Of a stretch of DNA of 64,000 nucleotides, positions 8,807 through 58,380 are shown one piece after another. The stretch spans positions 168,959 to 232,958 of the forward strand of contig JANLIR010000002.1 of assembly GCA_024654025.1 (NCBI GenBank), read 5' to 3'. A program made the translations under genes and the position numbers. Within the stretch, counting starts at the first letter, position 1. Every line of letters begins with the position of its first letter. Source of the stretch: Candidatus Wolfebacteria bacterium. GTDB lineage: Bacteria; Patescibacteriota; Minisyncoccia; UBA6257; UBA9933. The notes below the pieces were generated by a model, which saw nothing but the letters and a program-made list of their open reading frames with translations, had not been told where the DNA came from and searched no databases.

Positions 8807-8841
8807 GCAACCTGTAACTTGTAACAATTAACTTATAACAA
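8807..8841. repeat. 5 x 7-nt degenerate heptad array
   Basis: GCAACCT GTAACTT GTAACAA TTAACTT ATAACAA. Confidence 0.65.
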
Positions 8842-8865
8842 ATCAGTTTTAAATATTTCTCCCTC

Positions 8866-8900
8866 TAGTTACCAGTCACTGGTTACCAATCACTAGTTAG
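8866..8900. repeat. 5 x 7-nt degenerate heptad array
   Basis: TAGTTAC CAGTCAC TGGTTAC CAATCAC TAGTTAG. Confidence 0.65.
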
Positions 8901-9798: not shown

Positions 9799-11910
9799 AT
9801 GCTTGAATCCAAAGAATTTTCAATTGATTTTCAAGGGAAACCCTTGAGCTTAAAAGTTTCCAAAATTGCCGAGCAAGCCAACTCGGCTGTTTTAGGCCAG
9901 TACGGCGATACCGTGGTTCTAGTAACCGCCACGATGGGCGAAAAAGACCGCGATACGGATTATTTTCCTTTGGTAGTTGATTACGAAGAAAAATTTTATG
10001 CCGCCGGAAAAATTATCGGCAGCCGGTTTATTCGGCGCGAAGGCCGGCCTTCGGAAGAAGCTATTCTTTCCGGAAGAATGATTGACCGGGCGCTTCGGCC
10101 CTTTTTTAATTCACGGATGAGAAGAGATGTTCAAATTGTAATCACTATCCTTTCTTACGACGAAGAAAACGATCCGGATTTTATTTCGCTTCTCTCCGCT
10201 TCAACCGCCTTGGCAATTTCCGATATTCCGTGGAATGGCCCTGTTGCCGGAGTAAGATTGGCAAAAATGAAAGGCGGAAATTTAATGATTAATCCGACCA
10301 AGACGGAAATTAGCGGCAGTGAATTTTTATTCGAATCTTTTGTCGCCGGAAATGAAAGTAAAATAAATATGATAGAACTGGCGGCAAACGAAGTTTCCGA
10401 AAAAGAAGTTATTAGTTCATTTGAAACAGCCCAGGAAGAAATAAAAAAATTGATAAAATTCCAAAAAGAAATTATTCCCAAAATCAGCAAACCAAAAGCC
10501 GAAGTGCTTCTTGTTGAGCCGGATCCGAATTTAAAGCATAAAGTTCAGGAATTTTTAAAAAATAAATTAGAAAACGCAGTTTATGTTTCCGATAAAGCCC
10601 AGCAGCGCCATATTTTGCGAAAGTTAAAAGAAGATTTGAAAGAGCATTTGGTTTCTGAGGGGCTAATTCCGGAAGGAATTGATGCTATTGTAGAGGAAGA
10701 AATCGACGCGCTTATCCATAAAAATATTTTGGAAAAAGATATGAGGCCGGACTCTCGAAAACTCGATGAGGTCAGAGCGCTTTTCGGCCAAGTCGGTTTA
10801 TTTAAACGGCTTCACGGTTCCGCCTTGTTTTTTAGGGGTAGTACTCAATCGTTGGCAGTTACAACTTTAGCCGCTCCCGGACAGGAGCAAATGATAGAAA
10901 CAATGGAAGTTTCAGGGAAACGCAGATTTATGCTCCATTACAATTTTCCGCCTTATTCGGTTGGAGAAATAGGCAGACTGGGCGGACCGGGACGCCGAGA
11001 AGTCGGCCACGGCGCTTTGGCGGAAAAAGCCATAAGGTCAATAATCCCCTCAAAAGAGGAATTCCCTTATACTATCCGTGTTGTTTCAGAGATTTTGTCT
11101 TCAAACGGGTCATCTTCTATGGCAACTGTCTGCTCGTCGGTATTATCGCTAATGGATGCAGGTGTTCCTATTAAAAAGCCGGTGGCAGGCATTGCTATGG
11201 GAATTATTATGGGACAAGCGACAAGCGACAAGCGACAAGATTACAAAGTGCTGACCGATATTCAAGGCCCGGAAGATCACTACGGCGATATGGATTGTAA
11301 AGTTGCAGGCACAACCGACGGAATTACCGCCATACAAATGGACGTGAAAATTGACGGCGTTACCACCGAAATTTTAAATGACGTGTTAGTTCAAGCCAAA
11401 AAAGCCCGCCTTGAGATTTTGGAAGTTATGAAATCCGTTATTGATAAGCCTAGGGAAAAACTTTCAGAGTTCGCGCCAATTATTTTGACAATCAACATTA
11501 GTCCGGAAAGAATCGGCGAAGTTATCGGCCCGGGCGGAAAAATGATTAATATGATAATTAAAGACACCGGCGTTACGACAATAGATATCGAACAAACCGG
11601 AAAAGTTTTTGTTTCCGCCACTACTCCCGAACAAGCCCAAGCGGCGATTGGGTTCATCCAATCCTTAACAAAAGAATTCGAGGTCGGCGAAATTATTGAA
11701 GGCAAGATTATCAAACTTTTGGAATTTGGAGCCATTGTCGATTTGGGAGGCGGCAATGACGGAATGATTCACATTTCAGAAGTAAAAAGCGGATTTGTAA
11801 AAGATATTAATGAAGTTCTTAAATTGGGCGATGTTGTGAGGGCAAAAATTATAAAAGTTGAAAACGGAAAAATCGGACTTTCGATAAAAGCCTTGGCGGA
11901 ACAAAAATAG
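9799..11910 (+). CDS. pnp: polynucleotide phosphorylase
   Basis: Two RNase PH domains (GSALFFRGSTQ, SSNGSSSMATVC, DHYGDMDCKVAGT), then KH (GPGGKMINMI) and S1 (GAIVDLGGGNDGMIHISE). Confidence 0.97.
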   Translation: MLESKEFSIDFQGKPLSLKVSKIAEQANSAVLGQYGDTVVLVTATMGEKDRDTDYFPLVVDYEEKFYAAGKIIGSRFIRREGRPSEEAILSGRMIDRALRPFFNSRMRRDVQIVITILSYDEENDPDFISLLSASTALAISDIPWNGPVAGVRLAKMKGGNLMINPTKTEISGSEFLFESFVAGNESKINMIELAANEVSEKEVISSFETAQEEIKKLIKFQKEIIPKISKPKAEVLLVEPDPNLKHKVQEFLKNKLENAVYVSDKAQQRHILRKLKEDLKEHLVSEGLIPEGIDAIVEEEIDALIHKNILEKDMRPDSRKLDEVRALFGQVGLFKRLHGSALFFRGSTQSLAVTTLAAPGQEQMIETMEVSGKRRFMLHYNFPPYSVGEIGRLGGPGRREVGHGALAEKAIRSIIPSKEEFPYTIRVVSEILSSNGSSSMATVCSSVLSLMDAGVPIKKPVAGIAMGIIMGQATSDKRQDYKVLTDIQGPEDHYGDMDCKVAGTTDGITAIQMDVKIDGVTTEILNDVLVQAKKARLEILEVMKSVIDKPREKLSEFAPIILTINISPERIGEVIGPGGKMINMIIKDTGVTTIDIEQTGKVFVSATTPEQAQAAIGFIQSLTKEFEVGEIIEGKIIKLLEFGAIVDLGGGNDGMIHISEVKSGFVKDINEVLKLGDVVRAKIIKVENGKIGLSIKALAEQK
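11213..11240 (+). repeat. heptanucleotide tandem repeat inside pnp
   Basis: GACAAGC x3 (perfect) plus GACAAGA. Encodes QATSDKRQD. Confidence 0.85.
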
Positions 11911-12905: not shown

Positions 12906-13049
12906 GATTCACCCCCATAGGATTTCGCCATTTTTGGCGTGAAGAGTGTGCCGATTTAAATAAAAACTGATTACAAACTAAGTTAAAAACGCATTGCTGT
13001 CAATTTCCTTCCCTTTATACTTTTTGCTTTCTACTTTATACTATCCATA

Positions 13050-13628
13050 ATGATTTACTCTCTCTCTGGAAAGCTCACCGTAAAAACCAAACTTTTTATC
13101 ATTATTGAAACAAGTGGAATCGGCTTTAAAGTTTTTGTTTCGCGGCGGACAATTAATAAGCTTCCGAAAATAAATTCGAAAGCGAAAATTTTTTGCCATA
13201 CTTACGTCAAACAAGACGGAATCGAGCTTTACGGATTTTACGATAAAACCGAAATGGACGTTTTTGAAATGTTAACTTCAATTAGCGGCGTTGGTCCGAA
13301 AATGGCTTTAAAAATTTTATCGGTCATAAAACCGGAAGAATTAATGTCGGCCGTAAATAAAAACCGCGCCGATCTTCTTACAAAAATTTCCGGAGTCGGC
13401 AAAAAAACAGCCGAGCGGATAATTTTGGAATTAAAAGACAAAATAGCCGTTAAAGAAAGCGAAGAAATTATTTCTATGCTGGAAATCGATATTGACATTT
13501 CCGAAGCGCTCAAAAGAATGGGTTATAGGCAAAACGAAGTGAAGGAAGCCGTAAAAGCTATTTCTTCAAAAAGCGAAAAACCGGAAGAAAGAATAAGGGA
13601 AGCATTGAAATTTTTAAATAAAAGATAG
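13050..13628 (+). CDS. ruvA: Holliday junction DNA helicase RuvA
   Basis: N-terminal OB fold, HhH motifs (LTSISGVGPKMALKIL, LTKISGVGKKTAERIILELK), C-terminal domain III. Confidence 0.9.
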   Translation: MIYSLSGKLTVKTKLFIIIETSGIGFKVFVSRRTINKLPKINSKAKIFCHTYVKQDGIELYGFYDKTEMDVFEMLTSISGVGPKMALKILSVIKPEELMSAVNKNRADLLTKISGVGKKTAERIILELKDKIAVKESEEIISMLEIDIDISEALKRMGYRQNEVKEAVKAISSKSEKPEERIREALKFLNKR

Positions 13629-31567: not shown

Positions 31568-31579
31568 CACTTTTTTGTC

Positions 31580-31760
31580 GCCGAAGTAGCTCAGTGGCAG
31601 AGCAACTGTTTTGCGTCAGCCCCGTTAGATATGCCGGGATAGCTCAGTGGTAGAGCAACTGTTTTGTAAACAGTAGGTCGTCGGTTCGAATCCGACTCTC
31701 GGCTCTCTCGGTGTATCTAACGGGGTAAATAGGTCGCGAGTTCGAATCTCGCCTTCGGCT
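31580..31760 (+). tRNA. Thr-like tRNA shell interrupted by a complete tRNA-Thr (outer gene; possibly a pseudogene)
   Basis: 5' part GCCGAAG TA GCTC AGTGGCA GAGC A ACTGT TTTG... 3' part ...TAAAT AGGTC GCGAG TTCGAAT CTCGC CTTCGGC T. The acceptor pairs perfectly. The 3' anticodon-stem strand is missing. Confidence 0.45.
31633..31704 (+). tRNA. tRNA-Thr(UGU), nested
   Basis: GCCGGGA TA GCTC AGTGGTA GAGC A ACTGT TTTGTAA ACAGT AGGTC GTCGG TTCGAAT CCGAC TCTCGGC T. Confidence 0.9.
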
Positions 31761-31770
31761 CTAGACAAAA

Positions 31771-31842
31771 GCCAGAGTAGTTCAGTGGTAGAACGCTTTC
31801 TTGGTAAGAAAGAGGTCGGGAGTCCGATTCTCCCCTCTGGCT
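31771..31842 (+). tRNA. tRNA-Thr(GGU)
   Basis: GCCAGAG TA GTTC AGTGGTA GAAC G CTTTC TTGGTAA GAAAG AGGTC GGGAG TCCGATT CTCCC CTCTGGC T. The T loop reads TCCGATT rather than TTCGAxx. Confidence 0.85.
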
Positions 31843-31919: not shown

Positions 31920-31954
31920 GTTATAAGTTAATAGTTACAAGTTACTAGTTAATA
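31920..31954. repeat. 5 x 7-nt heptad array just upstream of rpmG
   Basis: GTTATAA GTTAATA GTTACAA GTTACTA GTTAATA. Confidence 0.75.
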
Positions 31955-31960
31955 ATTATT

Positions 31961-32131
31961 ATGGCTAAAACAAAAGCAAAAACCCAGTTAATTCGGCTAC
32001 GCTGTCAAATCTGCAAGAGGATTAATTATTACAGCAAGAAAAACAAAGGGTCAGCTGAAAAAAAAATTGAGTTAAAAAAATATTGCAAGTGGTGCCAAAA
32101 ATCCATAGTTCATAAAGAAGCCAAAAAATAA
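31961..32131 (+). CDS. rpmG: 50S ribosomal protein L33
   Basis: Hand translation: MAKTKAKTQLIRLRCQICKRINYYSKKNKGSAEKKIELKKYCKWCQKSIVHKEAKK*. CxxC...CxxC zinc ribbon. Below the ORF-track size cutoff. Confidence 0.9.
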   Translation: MAKTKAKTQLIRLRCQICKRINYYSKKNKGSAEKKIELKKYCKWCQKSIVHKEAKK

Positions 32132-32406: not shown

Positions 32407-32570
32407 TTTTGCGCTTACGCTAACACGATACTAATATACTAATTTTACTAATGATACGAATTGGATACGAATTCGTATTTATTAGTATCATTCGAATGCA
32501 TTCGTCCTTCGACTTACTCAGGACGACCCTGAGTCGGTCGAATGGGTCGTATATTGGTATCACAATCACA

Positions 32571-33815
32571 ATGAGGCGTTTCTATTTTGATTACGCTGCT
32601 ACTACTCCGATTGACCCAGAGGTTTTAAAAGAAATAAATTCTAATTTAAGGAATAATTTTGGCAATCCCGGATCGCTCAATTTTTTCGGGCAAGCCGCAA
32701 TGGCAATGGTTGATAAATCGCGCGAAAAAATCGCCAACGCAATCAACGCTGATTTTCGGGAAATAATTTTTACCGGATCCGCGACGGAGGCAAACAATCT
32801 CGCACTCAGAGGAATACTAAAAAACGCCCGCCTGCGCCAAGGCTTCGGCGGGCAGGTAAAAACTAAAAGCAAAAAACCGAGAATAATTGTTTCAGCTATT
32901 GAACACGAATCTATTTTAGAAACTGCTAGAGATTTATCCGCCAGAGGCGGATCCGCCTTTGGCGGAGAAAAAGAAGGCGTGGAAATTATTTATTTGCCGG
33001 TTGATAAAAACGGCGTTGTGGATTTAAAGAAGTTAGAGAACGCATTGAACGAAAGAACGATTTTGGTTTCAATAATGTACGCGAACAACGAAACCGGAGT
33101 CATACAACCAATAGCAGAAATCGCCGAAATTATAAAAAAATTCAAAGAAAAAAAATACCCTAAACCCTACACCCTAAACCCTACACCCTATTTTCACACC
33201 GACGCTGTCCAGGCGTTCCAATTTCTGGATTGCAATATTAAAAACTTAGGGGTAGATTTAATGACTTTATCGGCTCATAAAATTTACGGACCAAAAGGAA
33301 TTGGCGCGTTATACGTACGCAACTCACAACTCACAACCTACAACTTACAACCAATAATTACTGGAGGAAAACAAGAATTTGGATTAAGATCCGGCACTGA
33401 AAACGTTGCCATGATAGCTGGTTTCGCCAAAGCAATTGAATTGGCAAATGAGAAACGGGAAAAAGAGAAAAAAAGAATTTTTTTGCTGGCGCAATATTTT
33501 TTTAAAGAAATAAAAAAGATTGTTCCGAGCGCCCAACTAAACGCAGGGAAGGCCAAGCGGCTGCCTAATATTTTAAATATCGCTTTCTCGGGTTATGACG
33601 CGGAGAGTTTGCTGATAAAATTTGACCTTAACGGCACTGCTGTTTCCCGAGGCTCGGCGTGTATGGCGCGTTCGTCTCAGTCGTCTTATGTATTAAAAGA
33701 AATGGGACTAAGTGAAAGCGAGCAGCGCTCCAGTTTGCGGTTTAGCTTCGGCAGATTTACAACAAAAGAAGAAATGTCTAAAGCCTTGAAAATTATAAAA
33801 AAAACATTAAAATAG
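32571..33815 (+). CDS. cysteine desulfurase (IscS/NifS family)
   Basis: YFDYAATTP, FTGSATEANN, SAHKIYGPKGIGALYVR (PLP Lys), RSGTENV, SRGSACM (active Cys). Start placed at MRRFYF. Confidence 0.9.
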   Translation: MRRFYFDYAATTPIDPEVLKEINSNLRNNFGNPGSLNFFGQAAMAMVDKSREKIANAINADFREIIFTGSATEANNLALRGILKNARLRQGFGGQVKTKSKKPRIIVSAIEHESILETARDLSARGGSAFGGEKEGVEIIYLPVDKNGVVDLKKLENALNERTILVSIMYANNETGVIQPIAEIAEIIKKFKEKKYPKPYTLNPTPYFHTDAVQAFQFLDCNIKNLGVDLMTLSAHKIYGPKGIGALYVRNSQLTTYNLQPIITGGKQEFGLRSGTENVAMIAGFAKAIELANEKREKEKKRIFLLAQYFFKEIKKIVPSAQLNAGKAKRLPNILNIAFSGYDAESLLIKFDLNGTAVSRGSACMARSSQSSYVLKEMGLSESEQRSSLRFSFGRFTTKEEMSKALKIIKKTLK

Positions 33816-45814: not shown

Positions 45815-46654
45815 ATGCAAGCTATCAACGGGAAAGAAATTGCCCAAAAAATAATAGAAAATTTAAAAAATAAGCCAAAACCGGAAAAAATTTTGGCGGT
45901 AATTAAAGTTGGCGAAAACCCGGCATCAGAAAGTTTTATAAAGCAAAAAGAAAAAGTCGCCAAAGAATTGAAGGTGGATTTTCGGCTTTACGATCTTAAT
46001 GAGAATATCTCGCAAGATGATTTGAGAAAAGAAGTTGTTAAACTCGCTAATTTAAAAAAAGTAGGCGGAATAATTATTCAACTTCCTTTGCCAAAGCACA
46101 TAAATAATCAATACGTTTTAAACGTGATTCCGCGCGAAAAAGACATTGATGTTTTGGGCGAGCGATCTTTGGGCGCATTTTACGCCGGCCGTAATCCGGT
46201 TTTGCCGCCTTCAGTTGCCACAGTTGAAGAATTGTTGCGAGCTACAAGCTACAAGTTGCAAGTTGTAAAAGTTGCCGTTGTCGGTCTTGGCCAATTAGTG
46301 GGCAAACCAATTGCGGTGTGGCTGATAAAAAAATGTAAAGAACTTTATTTATTGGACCAAGGAAGCGACTTGGGAATATTAAAACAGGCGGATTTAGTGA
46401 TTTTAGGGGTTGGTAAAGCGGAAATTATAAGGCCGGATATGTTAAAGGAAAGCGCTTCAGTTATAGATTTCGGTTATGAAAGAAGCGAAGGACAAACAGG
46501 CGCTATTTCGGGAGATTTTGACGCCTCAGCGTTATTGGCTAGTGGCTATTCATTAATGACTGGGTTTTATACCCGTACTCCCGGCGGTACCGGTCCTGTG
46601 CTGGTGGCGAAAATTTTCGAAAACTTTTATACTTTGAACAATGAAAATGAATAG
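45815..46654 (+). CDS. folD: bifunctional methylenetetrahydrofolate dehydrogenase/cyclohydrolase
   Basis: VGENPASESFIKQKEK, GIIIQLPLP, DIDVLG, VVGLGQLVGKP, TPGGTGPV. Confidence 0.9.
   Translation: MQAINGKEIAQKIIENLKNKPKPEKILAVIKVGENPASESFIKQKEKVAKELKVDFRLYDLNENISQDDLRKEVVKLANLKKVGGIIIQLPLPKHINNQYVLNVIPREKDIDVLGERSLGAFYAGRNPVLPPSVATVEELLRATSYKLQVVKVAVVGLGQLVGKPIAVWLIKKCKELYLLDQGSDLGILKQADLVILGVGKAEIIRPDMLKESASVIDFGYERSEGQTGAISGDFDASALLASGYSLMTGFYTRTPGGTGPVLVAKIFENFYTLNNENE
46234..46268 (+). repeat. 5 x 7-nt heptad array inside folD
   Basis: GTTGCGA GCTACAA GCTACAA GTTGCAA GTTGTAA. Confidence 0.65.
46532..46561 (+). repeat. 30-nt repeat, copy 1 (in frame in folD)
   Basis: TTATTGGCTAGTGGCTATTCAttAATGACT. 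28/30 identical to 51390-51419. Confidence 0.85.
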
Positions 46655-47560: not shown

Positions 47561-47595
47561 CAGGGTTTAGGGTATAGCCACTAGGGTTTAGTGGA
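47561..47595. repeat. 5 x 7-nt heptad array between the LCP gene and pth
   Basis: CAGGGTT TAGGGTA TAGCCAC TAGGGTT TAGTGGA. Overlaps the last pth codons. Confidence 0.6.
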
Positions 47596-48742: not shown

Positions 48743-50074
48743 ATGTCAAAAACTTCCAAAAAAGAAAACAAAAAAGAAAAAAGGGTGAAAAAGGTCAGAC
48801 AACTTCCCCAATCTCCAAAAGGAATGCACGATATATTGCCTGAGGACCAGCCTCTTTGGGAAAGAATCAGAAACAAAGCAAGAAGCATTGCCGGTCTTTA
48901 TAGTTTTTCTCGAATCGACACCCACATCGTGGAGAAAGCCGAAATTTTTGAGCGCGGCGTTGGCCAAGAATCGGAGATTGTCCAAAAGCAAATGTTTTAT
49001 ATAAAAACCCCTGCCCGCTCGGCAGGCGGGAAAGACGACGATAAGCTGGCTTTGCAGCCCGAAGGCACCGCTTCGGTAATGAGATCATATTTTGAAAACG
49101 GTTTAAGTCGCATGGGTCAGCCTGTCAAGCTTTATTACGAAGCGCCAATGTTCCGTTACGAACAGCCGCAGCAAGCGAGGTTTAGGCAGTTTTACCAATT
49201 TGGGATAGAAATTTTAGGCGGCGAGAGCGAACCGGCTTATGACGCTCAAGCCATGCTTATTCCTTATAAAATATTGGAAAGTTTAAAAGTAAAAAATATC
49301 ACCATTAAAATAAATAGCATCGGTTGCCATAATTGCCGCGGCAATTTTTTGAAAAAACTCCAGCAGTATTATAAAAGACATCAAAAAGATACTTGCAAAG
49401 ATTGCGAAAAAAGAATCAGCTCTAATCCGATGCGCCTCTTGGATTGTAAAAACGAAAAATGCCAGCCCATTAAAGCCGGAGCGCCGGTAATTTTGGATTT
49501 TTTATGCAGCCAGTGCAAAGCGCATTTTAAAAAAGTTATGGAATTCGCCGATGAATTAAAATTGCCTTATGTAATCGACCATCTTTTGGTTCGAGGCCTT
49601 GATTATTACAACCGCACGGTGTTCGAAATTTTCAGTGAAAAAGCTCCGTTCGCTTTGGTAGCCGGAGGAAGATACGATTATTTGTCGGAAATGCTCGGGC
49701 AAGGGAGAATCGCCGCTGTGGGAAGCAGTATTGGTTTAAACAGGGTTGCGGGAGTTTTAAAAGAGGAGGTGAAAGGGGTTTTAAGGAGCCAGCCGAAAGT
49801 TTTTTTGATTCATCTTGGCGATGCGGCAAAAAAGAAAGGCCTTAGTTTAATCCAAAAACTAGTAGAAGAAGGGATAAGTATCGGAGAGTCTTTCGGCAGG
49901 GAATCATTAAAGTCCCAGCTTCGGATGGCTGACAAGGAAAAAGCGCTTTTAGCGTTAATTATCGGGCAAAAAGAAGTTTTTGAAGAAAGCGTGATTGTCC
50001 GCGATATGACTAGCGGCGTTCAGGAAACGATTCCTTTAACCAAAATTATCGAGGACATTAAAAAGAGAACATAA
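48743..50074 (+). CDS. hisS: histidine--tRNA ligase
   Basis: PKGMHDILPED, LQPEGTAS, FRYEQPQQARFRQFYQFG (motif 2), GGRYD (motif 3), C-terminal anticodon-binding domain. Confidence 0.93.
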   Translation: MSKTSKKENKKEKRVKKVRQLPQSPKGMHDILPEDQPLWERIRNKARSIAGLYSFSRIDTHIVEKAEIFERGVGQESEIVQKQMFYIKTPARSAGGKDDDKLALQPEGTASVMRSYFENGLSRMGQPVKLYYEAPMFRYEQPQQARFRQFYQFGIEILGGESEPAYDAQAMLIPYKILESLKVKNITIKINSIGCHNCRGNFLKKLQQYYKRHQKDTCKDCEKRISSNPMRLLDCKNEKCQPIKAGAPVILDFLCSQCKAHFKKVMEFADELKLPYVIDHLLVRGLDYYNRTVFEIFSEKAPFALVAGGRYDYLSEMLGQGRIAAVGSSIGLNRVAGVLKEEVKGVLRSQPKVFLIHLGDAAKKKGLSLIQKLVEEGISIGESFGRESLKSQLRMADKEKALLALIIGQKEVFEESVIVRDMTSGVQETIPLTKIIEDIKKRT

Positions 50075-51858: not shown

Positions 51859-52869
51859 TTATTTTTTTAGTCCGGTTGCTTTTTTTACCTCCTCTAGTTT
51901 TTTGTTCGCAATCGCCTCCGCTTTTTTATTTCCAACTGCCATTAATTTTTCTATTTTCCTGATATTTTTGGAAAGCAGATTTTTCTTTTTCTGAAATACC
52001 ATAAAATAATCGATTATCACGTTTGATAAATCTTTTTTAAATTGGCCGTAAGATTTATTTTCGTATTTTTTTTCAATTTTCTTCATCGGCAAACCGCTCA
52101 AGTTTTTGTAAATTCTGAGCAGATTGGAAATCGCCGGTTTTGATTCGGGCAGGTATTTTATTTCTTTTCCGGAATCGGTCACAGCCCGTTTTATTTTCTC
52201 CGTCATAATCTGCGGCGAGTCGTCTAAAAATAAACATCCTTCGGGCATTGATTTGGACATTTTTTTATTTGGGTTGTCCAAGCTCATTATTTTCGGTGTC
52301 TCGGTTAAAAGCGGTTTTGGTTCAATAAAGACCTTGCCGCCTGCCCGCCCGTCTGGCGGGAATTTTTTATTGAATTTTCGCGCCAATGTTCTCGTTAATT
52401 CCAAGTGCTGGAGTTGGTCTTCGCCAACAGGAACAAATTCGGCGTCGTAAAGCAAAATATCAGAGGCCATTAAAACCGGATAATCAAATAACCCGACATT
52501 TATATTTTCTCGCTGGTGTTCGGATTTATCTTTGAACTGCGTCATTCTTTTTAATTCTCCAAACGGCGTAACGGTGTTTAAAATCCAGGCGGTTTCGCTG
52601 TGAGCCGGTATTTTCGACTGGATAAAGATTGTCGATTTTTCGGCGTTTAGTCCCGCTGAAAGATAATCAAGAACCAAATTCAAAACTTGCCCCGGTTTTT
52701 CTTTCGGGTCGTAACTTTCGGTTATAGAATGAAGGTCGGCAACAAAAAAGTAGCATTTGTATCGGCCTGAATTTTGCAGGTCAACAAAATTTTTTAAAGC
52801 CCCTAAATAATTTCCTATGTGAAGTTTCCCTGTCGGCTGGATTCCTGAAATTAAAATCGGTTTGGACAT
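51859..52869 (-). CDS. trpS: tryptophan--tRNA ligase
   Basis: SGIQPTGKLHIGNYLG (HIGH), KMSKS. Confidence 0.93.
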   Translation of the reverse strand: MSKPILISGIQPTGKLHIGNYLGALKNFVDLQNSGRYKCYFFVADLHSITESYDPKEKPGQVLNLVLDYLSAGLNAEKSTIFIQSKIPAHSETAWILNTVTPFGELKRMTQFKDKSEHQRENINVGLFDYPVLMASDILLYDAEFVPVGEDQLQHLELTRTLARKFNKKFPPDGRAGGKVFIEPKPLLTETPKIMSLDNPNKKMSKSMPEGCLFLDDSPQIMTEKIKRAVTDSGKEIKYLPESKPAISNLLRIYKNLSGLPMKKIEKKYENKSYGQFKKDLSNVIIDYFMVFQKKKNLLSKNIRKIEKLMAVGNKKAEAIANKKLEEVKKATGLKK

Positions 52870-57664: not shown

Positions 57665-57874
57665 TTAAAATAAGTTGATTAAAGACAAGGCGGCGAAAAT
57701 AACCGTTAAAACTACGGTGGCTATAAAAATTATTTTTTCGAATCCCCGTCGGGTTTGGTAATAAGAGCTTTCGCTTCCCCCAAAAACTCCCGAAAGGCCA
57801 GAAGATCTTTCCTGAAGTAAAATCAAAATAATCAATATTATCGAAATTATTATTTGAGCAATGGAAAACAACAT
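57665..57874 (-). CDS. secG: preprotein translocase subunit SecG
   Basis: IILIILILLQERSSGLSGVFGG. Two TM helices, 69 aa. Confidence 0.85.
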   Translation of the reverse strand: MLFSIAQIIISIILIILILLQERSSGLSGVFGGSESSYYQTRRGFEKIIFIATVVLTVIFAALSLINLF

Positions 57875-57883
57875 GATTTAATT

Positions 57884-58014
57884 ACAAATCCTAAATTCTA
57901 AGCACTAAACTCTAAACAAATTCAAATCACCAAAATCCAAAATTCAAAACGTTTAGAATTTAAAACATTTGAATTTTGATATTGTTTAGGATTTAGATAT
58001 TAGGATTTAGAGTT
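57884..58014. repeat. AT-rich imperfect long palindrome built from heptads
   Basis: Left arm AATCCTA AATTCTA AGCACTA AACTCTA... Centre AAAACGTTT near 57950. Right arm ...TTTAGGATTTAGATATTAGGATTTAGAG. Confidence 0.5.
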
Positions 58015-58380
58015 TTATTCCTTGTAAAGCCGTTTTGCGGAAAAATGAACTAAAAGATTGATAACGCTTATTAGTATCGTAGCATAAAGAAGCGGCGTTA
58101 GTCCAGATATTGTAATGTCAGTTGAAAAATAGTCAAGGATGTAGAGAGTAAGCGTGTTAACAATAATAATCCCCAATCCAAGAGTTATAAAGATTATCGG
58201 CGTAAAAATCAATTTTAAAATCGGTCTGATAAACATATTTATCAAAGTGAATATCAGTGTCGCGCTGGCAAGTCCATAAAGGCTGGCGCTGATACTGAAT
58301 CCGGAAATAAAATATTTAGCCGCCAAAAGCGCCAACACATTGGAAAAAAAGGAAAATATAAATTTTGAGATAATCCGCAT
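58015..58380 (-). CDS. 4-TM membrane protein (phage holin 4 / DUF360-like)
   Basis: FIRPILKLIFTPIIFITLGL. Four TM helices, 121 aa. Confidence 0.55.
   Translation of the reverse strand: MRIISKFIFSFFSNVLALLAAKYFISGFSISASLYGLASATLIFTLINMFIRPILKLIFTPIIFITLGLGIIIVNTLTLYILDYFSTDITISGLTPLLYATILISVINLLVHFSAKRLYKE

Follow-up and report, generated by a model that had tools for sequence, protein, structure and literature searches.

The window analysed here, a 64,000-nucleotide stretch from the metagenome-assembled genome of an ultra-small bacterium, Candidatus Wolfebacteria (contig JANLIR010000002.1, positions 168,959 to 232,958 of the forward strand), contains on its forward strand a gene for a cysteine desulfurase of the IscS/NifS type (PF00266; 32571–33815, 414 amino acids) that hosts two short arrays of tandem 7-nucleotide (nt) units. 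Array 1 (33157–33191, forward strand) consists of five units of the type ACCCTAA/ACCCTAC, reads ACCCTAA ACCCTAC ACCCTAA ACCCTAC ACCCTAT and encodes YPKPYTLNPTPY in frame. Array 2 (33321–33355, forward strand) reads AACTCAC AACTCAC AACCTAC AACTTAC AACCAAT and encodes NSQLTTYNLQP, likewise in frame. Coordinates, letters and frame are exactly those of an initial annotation made from the sequence alone. Tandem Repeats Finder (TRF) assigns 4.9 copies of period 7 to array 1, which it also describes as 2.4 copies of period 14 at 100% match, and 4.6 copies of period 7 to array 2; matches at period 7 amount to 88% in both. Both arrays are direct repeats, built of head-to-tail units in more than three copies, and no inverted partner of either was found within the desulfurase gene.

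The desulfurase starts with MRRFYFDY at 32571, and the first ATG of the open reading frame (ORF) at 32451 is not its start. The protein is 100% identical to the NCBI entry 'MAG Candidatus Wolfebacteria cysteine desulfurase' and clearly similar to human NFS1 (E = 6e-78) and Escherichia coli IscS (E = 3e-75). Compared with NFS1 it contains three large extra segments. Array 1 accounts for one of them, and the other two derive from GC-rich palindromic DNA, a phenomenon separate from the heptad arrays. The product of array 1, EKKYPKPYTLNPT (13 amino acids), forms a loop insertion of 12–13 amino acids between a helix and the FHTDAVQ strand and faces a 13-residue gap in the NFS1 alignment; the excess of about 13 residues over IscS that had been pointed out for this region thus holds for array 1, as a lineage-specific insertion relative to IscS and NFS1. 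Array 2 replaces a segment of near-equal length (two amino acids more than in NFS1, four more than in the shortest homologues of the Candidate Phyla Radiation (CPR)) and ends on the conserved L-x-P that precedes IITGG. An AlphaFold model, used solely for the coil and low-confidence status of the array segments, places both in coil with a predicted local distance difference test (pLDDT) score below 50; the model as a whole is mediocre (mean pLDDT 64.5).

Period 7 stands out from the composition of the window. We counted arrays as lag-p self-matches in 28-nt windows and used 30 dinucleotide-preserving shuffles as control. At a threshold of at least 19 of 28 matches, nine period-7 arrays were found compared with a shuffle mean of 0.27, and at least 22 of 28 matches were reached by five arrays in the window and by none in the shuffles. 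Periods 4–6 and 8–12 remained at background level, and the enrichment over shuffled sequence that the initial annotation had anticipated is therefore present for period 7 alone. The same signal extends beyond this contig. Among 80 loci with desulfurase homologues, one genome per species, period-7 arrays were almost confined to Patescibacteria, where TRF detected 39 in 510 kb; in 835 kb of loci around the same gene from non-CPR organisms it detected two. A non-redundant set of 59 Wolfebacteria-like loci (534 kb) yielded 137 period-7 arrays of at least three copies, about one per 4 kb, with at most 12 arrays for each of the other periods; as these loci surround two genes and some of their arrays are orthologous to each other, the counts are not independent. 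The proposed membership of the two desulfurase arrays in a genome-wide class of period-7 arrays of about 35 nt is borne out by this census.

Most arrays of the Wolfebacteria-like set lie inside long ORFs (112 of 140, about 80%). Their lengths cluster at 26–37 nt with a mode of 30–33 nt, and two of the 140 exceed 41 nt. Copy number was four in 34, five in 33 and six in one of 69 arrays, and the description of the arrays as exactly five units is accordingly an approximation to a typical 26–37 nt, or four to five units. Rare long arrays occur: a 'Bacteroidia' contig from groundwater (L033, 1519–1686; L-numbers denote fetched loci of related DNA) carries about 24 units of TTCGATG/TTTGATG, and a Wolfebacteria-like contig (L133, 9856–9928) has ten units of AGTTGTC between genes. 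The ceiling of about five units is therefore not absolute. The edges of 21 perfect cores show a weak gradient (0.40 compared with 0.27 in the first 7 nt). At the protein level, peptide repeats at lag 7 were found 33 times in 120 homologous desulfurases, compared with 0–13 at other lags. These repeats, for example NLKPNTYNLKP, IWDLGFGIWDL and LRRQDAKLRRQ, are the protein shadow of heptad DNA in all three reading frames. On the sense strand, arrays inside genes are rich in A (0.42) and poor in G (0.10). Stop avoidance as the sole cause of this bias was rejected, as its simulation gives an A content of 0.25 and a G content of 0.21.

At the desulfurase locus, a codon alignment with eight close relatives and more distant ones shows that the length of array 1 is constant in homologues at 71–97% amino-acid identity; the array is kept in L081, L082, L083, L085 and L086. 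Array 2 has a constant length in most lineages examined, and most relatives are heptad-periodic at its site with lineage-specific units of the type NNCCTAN. In the window, units 1 and 2 of array 2 carry one common double change from CT to TC (AACTCAC twice), and in L085 the same two units have a common T-to-A change (AACCAAC twice). Adjacent units with identical changes point to concerted change. The periodicity of array 2 has partly decayed in L002 and L086, and the array is deleted in L084. As an observation on the gene itself, the desulfurase is a mosaic produced by recombination: its identity to L081 is 100% over codons 0–96, 78–89% over codons 100–180 and 97–100% thereafter, and its identity to L086 is about 70% overall but 100% around array 1.

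The window holds a sister array in folD (46234–46275, forward strand; AAGCTAC/AAGTTGC in five to six units, encoding RATSYKLQVVK) that entails no length change in comparison with solved FolD structures and provides the clearest case of position and length being kept while the units differ by lineage. For this gene 78 related loci were fetched, 31 relatives were aligned and 27 lineages were analysed for periodicity. The array is present without insertion or deletion, relative to each other or to the solved structures, in 29 of the 31 aligned relatives; L135 and L149 differ. At this position, site A, clear heptad periodicity over the same codons is seen in about 23 of the 27 lineages. The units themselves differ from lineage to lineage (AACTTAC, GACTTAC, AAACTAC, AAGATAC, AAGCTAA, ATTCTAA, AATCTTA, AAATTGA, AAGTTTC, AATGTCA and TAGCGAC) but keep one phase throughout and a common skeleton, AANYTNN. 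Lag-7 identity is 0.66 in the array segment compared with a baseline of 0.29 in the rest of the gene. Within a lineage the units are identical to each other at 0.71 of positions, and between lineages identity is 0.51 in the array compared with 0.70 in the flanks. Units are thus more alike within one genome than orthologous positions are across genomes, which is the hallmark of concerted evolution.

A second hotspot in folD, site B, lies about 300 nt downstream of site A and behaves in the same way. In L140, site B is seven amino acids longer, which equals three units. An identical 31-nt array, AATTGAAAATTGTAAATTGAAAATTGAAAATT, which contains a TGT in place of a stop codon, occupies site A or site B depending on the lineage, and L133 has it at both, indicating that arrays with similar units exchange sequence. 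Frameshifted folD alleles were not seen; all alleles are in frame, and L090, L103 and L118 were discarded as candidates, their apparent stops being terminal stop codons only. The periodicity at folD has partly decayed in L094, L102 and L142. Together with the decay of array 2 in L002 and L086 and its deletion in L084, this argues against a strict functional constraint. Variation between strains, which the initial annotation had raised for the arrays, was thus found not in copy number, which is constant for array 1, for array 2 in most lineages and for folD in 29 of 31 relatives, but in the unit sequence, which changes in concert.

A trace of how the arrays evolve is left at stop codons. Of 111 arrays inside genes, 51 (46%) have a stop triplet in their consensus unit, compared with a random expectation of 42%, and the homogenising force would appear to be blind to coding. 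In 50 of these 51 cases a perfect array would contain an in-frame stop, and exactly that instance differs by one base. The patches convert TAA to TAC, TAT, AAA or CAA and TGA to TGT or GGA. Array 1 is among the cases: its unit is ACCCTAA, and each TAA that would fall in frame is TAC or TAT. Likewise, the desulfurase gene of L087 reads CACCTAA AACCTAA CACCTAC AACCTAA, with TAC in the in-frame unit only. Such patches are the expected trace of a repeated push towards periodicity with selection vetoing the lethal steps and are hard to obtain from the one-step insertion of a block.

Taken together, we consider it probable that the arrays are heptanucleotide simple sequence repeats homogenised by templated copying misaligned by 7 nt in either direction, with selection vetoing changes of frame, changes of length and stops, and that they are loop passengers not involved in phase variation. 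During replication or repair, a strand end would transiently pair with a displacement of one unit (7 nt) and be extended or corrected against the neighbouring unit; a similar array nearby could serve as an alternative template. Each such event would move bases from unit to unit without a change in length, and a stretch of about 30–35 nt could in this way be driven to, and held at, 7-nt periodicity by concerted evolution. Purifying selection on the protein would remove frame shifts caused by one or two units in either direction, in-frame stops and damage to the fold. Under this mechanism arrays would be expected to survive in surface loops only, to keep a fixed length or change it by three units (seven amino acids), and to carry single-base patches at would-be stops. 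The peptides YPKPYTLNPTPY and NSQLTTYNLQP would then be passengers, tolerated as loop sequence without a specific function.

Several points weigh against this explanation. We infer the copying or misalignment step itself from the concerted changes, the variant with three additional units and the identical arrays at ectopic sites. Plain slippage predicts neither the sharp length ceiling nor the strict choice of seven. The long retention of periodicity at the same codons, in proteins at 54–99% identity, could alternatively result from selection acting on the periodicity itself. Stop avoidance alone does not account for the A/G bias of the sense strand; a further filter, acting on amino acids or on RNA, is required, and a preference for hydrophilic residues in loops would be a plausible one. 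The AlphaFold model is mediocre, and the census counts are not independent.

For heptamer repeats in other bacteria, a property of the machinery for replication or repair is commonly invoked. We tentatively put forward, as a possible though rather doubtful reading, that Wolfebacteria-like Patescibacteria have a lineage-specific process that is locked to a 7-nt register, acts on patches of about 35 nt and continually overwrites short stretches of essential genes with local heptamer copies, maintaining the periodicity and not the sequence. This process could be a property of replication or repair or a factor that recognises DNA or RNA with a 7-nt period. If true, it would be a major engine of loop insertions and of rapid surface divergence in the proteins of this radiation.

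Alternatively, the periodicity itself may be functional, with arrays acting as DNA or RNA cis-elements that rely on about five tandem 7-nt units irrespective of their sequence and with selection maintaining the periodicity. Possible roles include unstructured A-rich and G-poor mRNA bound by proteins of the S1 or Csp type, signals for translation or pausing, and slipped-DNA structures. Most of the 27 folD lineages do retain position, length and periodicity while the sequence drifts, the size distribution is narrow (26–37 nt), and the sense-strand bias (A 0.42, G 0.10) exceeds what stop avoidance explains. Moreover, two arrays of the window adjoin the starts of rpmG and ruvA, matching the TAACTGA repeats proposed as translational regulators (PMC4679880). 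Nevertheless, we regard this explanation as unlikely. The units vary among the arrays of one genome, which does not fit any single sequence-specific factor, and decay of the periodicity or deletion of the array in several lineages has had no visible consequence. In addition, the arrays evolve faster than their flanks, their positions track protein loops and have no consistent place in the gene, and no Rfam family overlaps them.

Inverted arrangements of arrays raise the question of whether each array is the footprint of a small mobile or templated element, that is, of a ready-made stretch of about 35 nt, or of a hairpin whose arms are heptad arrays, inserted in one step at permissive sites in the manner of Rickettsia palindromic elements. 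Inverted array pairs flank inserts at the desulfurase loop sites of array 1 (in L087 and L088) and of array 2 (in L003 and L005), and others occur in intergenic DNA of L018 and of the window (57880–58015). The narrow size range and the identical 31-nt array at two folD sites could be read in the same way. So could the 12-mer TACCCTAAACCC that array 1 shares with 47563–47574 on the minus strand, a link already drawn in the initial annotation. It is real, with three matches at no more than one mismatch compared with 0.24 expected in the window. The array to which this match was assigned (47561–47595, minus strand, just past a gene of the LytR family) contains GGGTTTAGGGTA, which is the TACCCTAAACCC of array 1 in reverse complement, but is weaker than had been claimed, as three of its five units fit the heptad and a CCACTA...TAGTGG hairpin takes up part of its length. 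An element of this kind is nonetheless improbable in our view. The diversity of units within one genome leaves no master copy, the folD array adds no length in comparison with outgroups and would require replacement instead of insertion, and no transposase or retroelement is associated with the arrays. A one-step insertion containing a stop would be lethal in 46% of cases, yet precise single-base patches are seen.

Seven is not a multiple of three, and the gain or loss of a single unit by slippage would shift the frame. The arrays might then be contingency loci that switch a gene off and on in a fraction of cells; phase-variable heptanucleotide repeats are known in Haemophilus. The comparison between relatives speaks strongly against this: the length of array 1 is constant at 71–97% identity, the folD array is free of insertions and deletions in 29 of 31 relatives, and every allele is in frame. 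The units are imperfect, which suppresses slippage, and the hosts are single-copy housekeeping enzymes (IscS, FolD, PNPase) and not dispensable or surface genes, making such a role very unlikely. Finally, we give virtually no credence to chance, composition or an artefact of metagenome assembly: the short length of the arrays and the AT-rich composition of the window (about 40% GC) could favour such a view, but shuffles yield 0–0.3 arrays compared with the 5–9 observed, the signal is specific to period 7, independent ENA, JGI and NCBI assemblies contain the same arrays, and the arrays are shorter than a sequencing read.

Further identities were tried and rejected. A trans-acting, retroelement-like template would give one unit throughout the genome, and the units differ among the arrays of the window. 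Array 1 contains CCCTAAA, the unit of telomere-type (CCCTAAA)n repeats, twice, but it is only 35 nt long, lies inside a coding sequence and alternates with CCCTACA, and we regard the resemblance as coincidental. No unit fits the slippery heptamer X XXY YYZ of programmed -1 frameshifting, and the protein aligns through both arrays in one frame. An in-frame palindromic element resembling Rickettsia palindromic elements or miniature inverted-repeat transposable elements was dismissed as well, the arrays being direct repeats with only a 12-nt match elsewhere in the window.

Other heptad arrays of the window lie in and between other genes. In the PNPase gene, GACAAGC occurs in 3.9 copies (11213–11239, forward strand) and encodes GQATSDKRQD, a hairpin-loop insertion of six amino acids in comparison with PDB 5yjj. 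The intergenic array before rpmG (L33), with five units of GTTAATA/GTTACAA (31920–31961, forward strand), ends 1–4 nt 5' of the ATG at 31962, and 4.3 units of the CTTTATA type before ruvA (13008–13048, forward strand) adjoin the start codon at 13050. These two arrays occupy the spot expected for a ribosome-binding site and recall the TAACTGA repeats of Beggiatoaceae. Units of the AACTTGT type (8809–8843) coincide with the 5' end of a minus-strand tyrosine recombinase gene or lie upstream of it, and a 14-nt tandem repeat follows at 8865–8899. An intergenic pair of opposed arrays (57880–58015) has two halves in opposite orientation, CCTAAAT/TCTAAAC and TTTAGGA/TTTAGAT; the surrounding stretch 57822–58015 is dense with opposed heptad arrays, with CCAAAAT between the two types, and judged by eye the pair looks like a long imperfect hairpin. 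Similar inverted pairs are found in L018 (7721–7830 and 13804–13908) and, as mentioned, inside the homologous desulfurase genes of L087, L088, L003 and L005. A scan of the window with Rfam returned only tRNAs and a tmRNA, with no family overlapping the arrays.

The GC-rich palindromic stretches stand out in a genome of about 40% GC and are found at 32825–32860 and 32933–32970 in the desulfurase coding sequence, at 49006–49032 and at 52330–52362. The two in the desulfurase keep the reading frame; their products, RLRQGFGGQV and SARGGSAFGG, are insertions in comparison with NFS1. The SARGGSAFGG insert is missing in the 95%-identical homologue P0002 and lies at the same site in the 61%-identical homologues P0020 and P0021. 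Three copies of the palindrome have a common core, CCTGCCCGC/GCGGGCAGG, and short inserts of the 'PPAGG' type are present in other desulfurase homologues. These palindromes resemble small mobile elements that insert without disturbing the reading frame.

Two further features lie upstream of the desulfurase. A disrupted tRNA-like gene at 31577–31777 consists of a 5' half, GCCGAAGTAGCTCAGTGGCAGAGCAACTGTTTTGCG, and a 3' half, TAGGTCGCGAGTTCGAATCTCGCCTTCGGCTCTA, with intact acceptor, D and T arms. Within the roughly 130 nt between the halves lies an entire tRNA-Thr(UGU), bordered by CCCCGTTAGAT and ATCTAACGGGG, which form an inverted repeat. An intron-containing tRNA was considered and rejected, as the intron search of ARAGORN makes no call for the outer gene. 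Just 5' of the desulfurase start, the stretch 32420–32545 contains tandem GATACGAATT(G) repeats, the palindrome GAATTCGTATT and a GC-richer hairpin (CGTCCTTCGACTTACTCAGGACGACCCTGAGTCGGTCGAATGGGTCG); it has no Rfam match at the gathering threshold.

Coding DNA would be expected to lose repeats whose unit is not a multiple of three. In the lineage studied here, such arrays occur about once per 4 kb, mostly in housekeeping genes, stay at the same codons over deep divergence and are rewritten in concert. They represent a natural experiment on mutation versus selection, in which a homogenising force at the DNA level meets a veto that the stop patches record directly. They are a possible source of odd loop insertions and of fast-evolving surface segments in CPR proteins. 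Heptad segments can mislead alignment, phylogeny and structure prediction in these organisms, and peptides with a period of seven amino acids can now be flagged as driven by DNA rather than as functional motifs. With hundreds of arrays per genome and thousands of available metagenome-assembled genomes, the question of why the period is seven becomes testable.

In the literature searched, we found no report of heptamer or tandem repeats in CPR, Patescibacteria, Parcubacteria or Wolfebacteria. Heptamer repeats as such are known in other bacteria; the coding, position-conserved and concerted form is new in that literature. Heptamer simple sequence repeats are over-represented in some bacteria, with a preference for four units and polymerase slippage as the hypothesis (PMC4692102), and over-representation of heptanucleotide repeats was surveyed by Mrazek et al. 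in 2007, as cited there. The families described comprise GGGAATC in Xanthomonas, GGGGA(T/C)T in Nostoc and the STRR heptamers of Calothrix and Anabaena (PMC4692102). The arrays described here resemble them in consisting of tandem 7-nt units at many loci per genome, with period 7 singled out among 4–11 nt, in a mode of about four units and occasional inverted pairs, and in length and sequence that differ between related species at the same loci. However, the Xanthomonas, Nostoc and STRR repeats are mostly non-coding and under-represented in ORFs, whereas about 80% of the Wolfebacteria-like arrays are in genes, among them genes for housekeeping enzymes. Each of those families has one dominant, G-rich unit capable of forming G-quadruplexes, while the Wolfebacteria-like units are diverse and A-rich with about 10% G on the sense strand. 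Their units (CCCCAAT, TTGGTCA and CAACAGT of STRR, and GGGAATC) are not matched by the ACCCTAA and AACCTAC types found here, and their arrays range from 2 to 26 units compared with almost never more than five. Arrays conserved in position, concerted change of units and the patching of stops are not described for these families (PMC4692102).

Direct repeats of TAACTGA in marine Beggiatoaceae, cyanobacteria and Bacteroidetes adjoin start codons, and some are read through in ORFs (PMC4679880). They are heptamers in 2–6 copies, many of them immediately 5' of starts as are the rpmG and ruvA arrays. A further likeness is that a minority is read through in ORFs as the 7-amino-acid repeat LSVISYQ, the forward orientation having stops in all frames. 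In contrast, TAACTGA is a single unit across genomes, whereas the Wolfebacteria-like arrays comprise many units, TAACTGA being absent among those of the window. The ORF cases of TAACTGA are peripheral and mostly in hypothetical proteins, while those described here are in internal enzyme loops, conserved in position among orthologues and concerted.

Phase-variable heptanucleotide repeats are known in Haemophilus influenzae. As in these contingency repeats, a non-triplet tandem unit lies in or next to genes and slippage is presumed; unlike them, the Wolfebacteria-like arrays show no copy-number polymorphism among relatives, have imperfect units, are hosted by housekeeping genes and have no out-of-frame alleles. 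Rickettsia palindromic elements are dispersed palindromes of about 100–150 nt that belong to few sequence families and form in-frame insertions in protein-coding genes. The heptad arrays share with them that repeats at the DNA level are translated as extra surface loops of conserved proteins whose function stays intact, but differ in being tandem, about 35 nt long and without a master sequence. The GC-rich palindromes at 32825–32860 and 32933–32970 are closer to the Rickettsia elements than the heptad arrays are.

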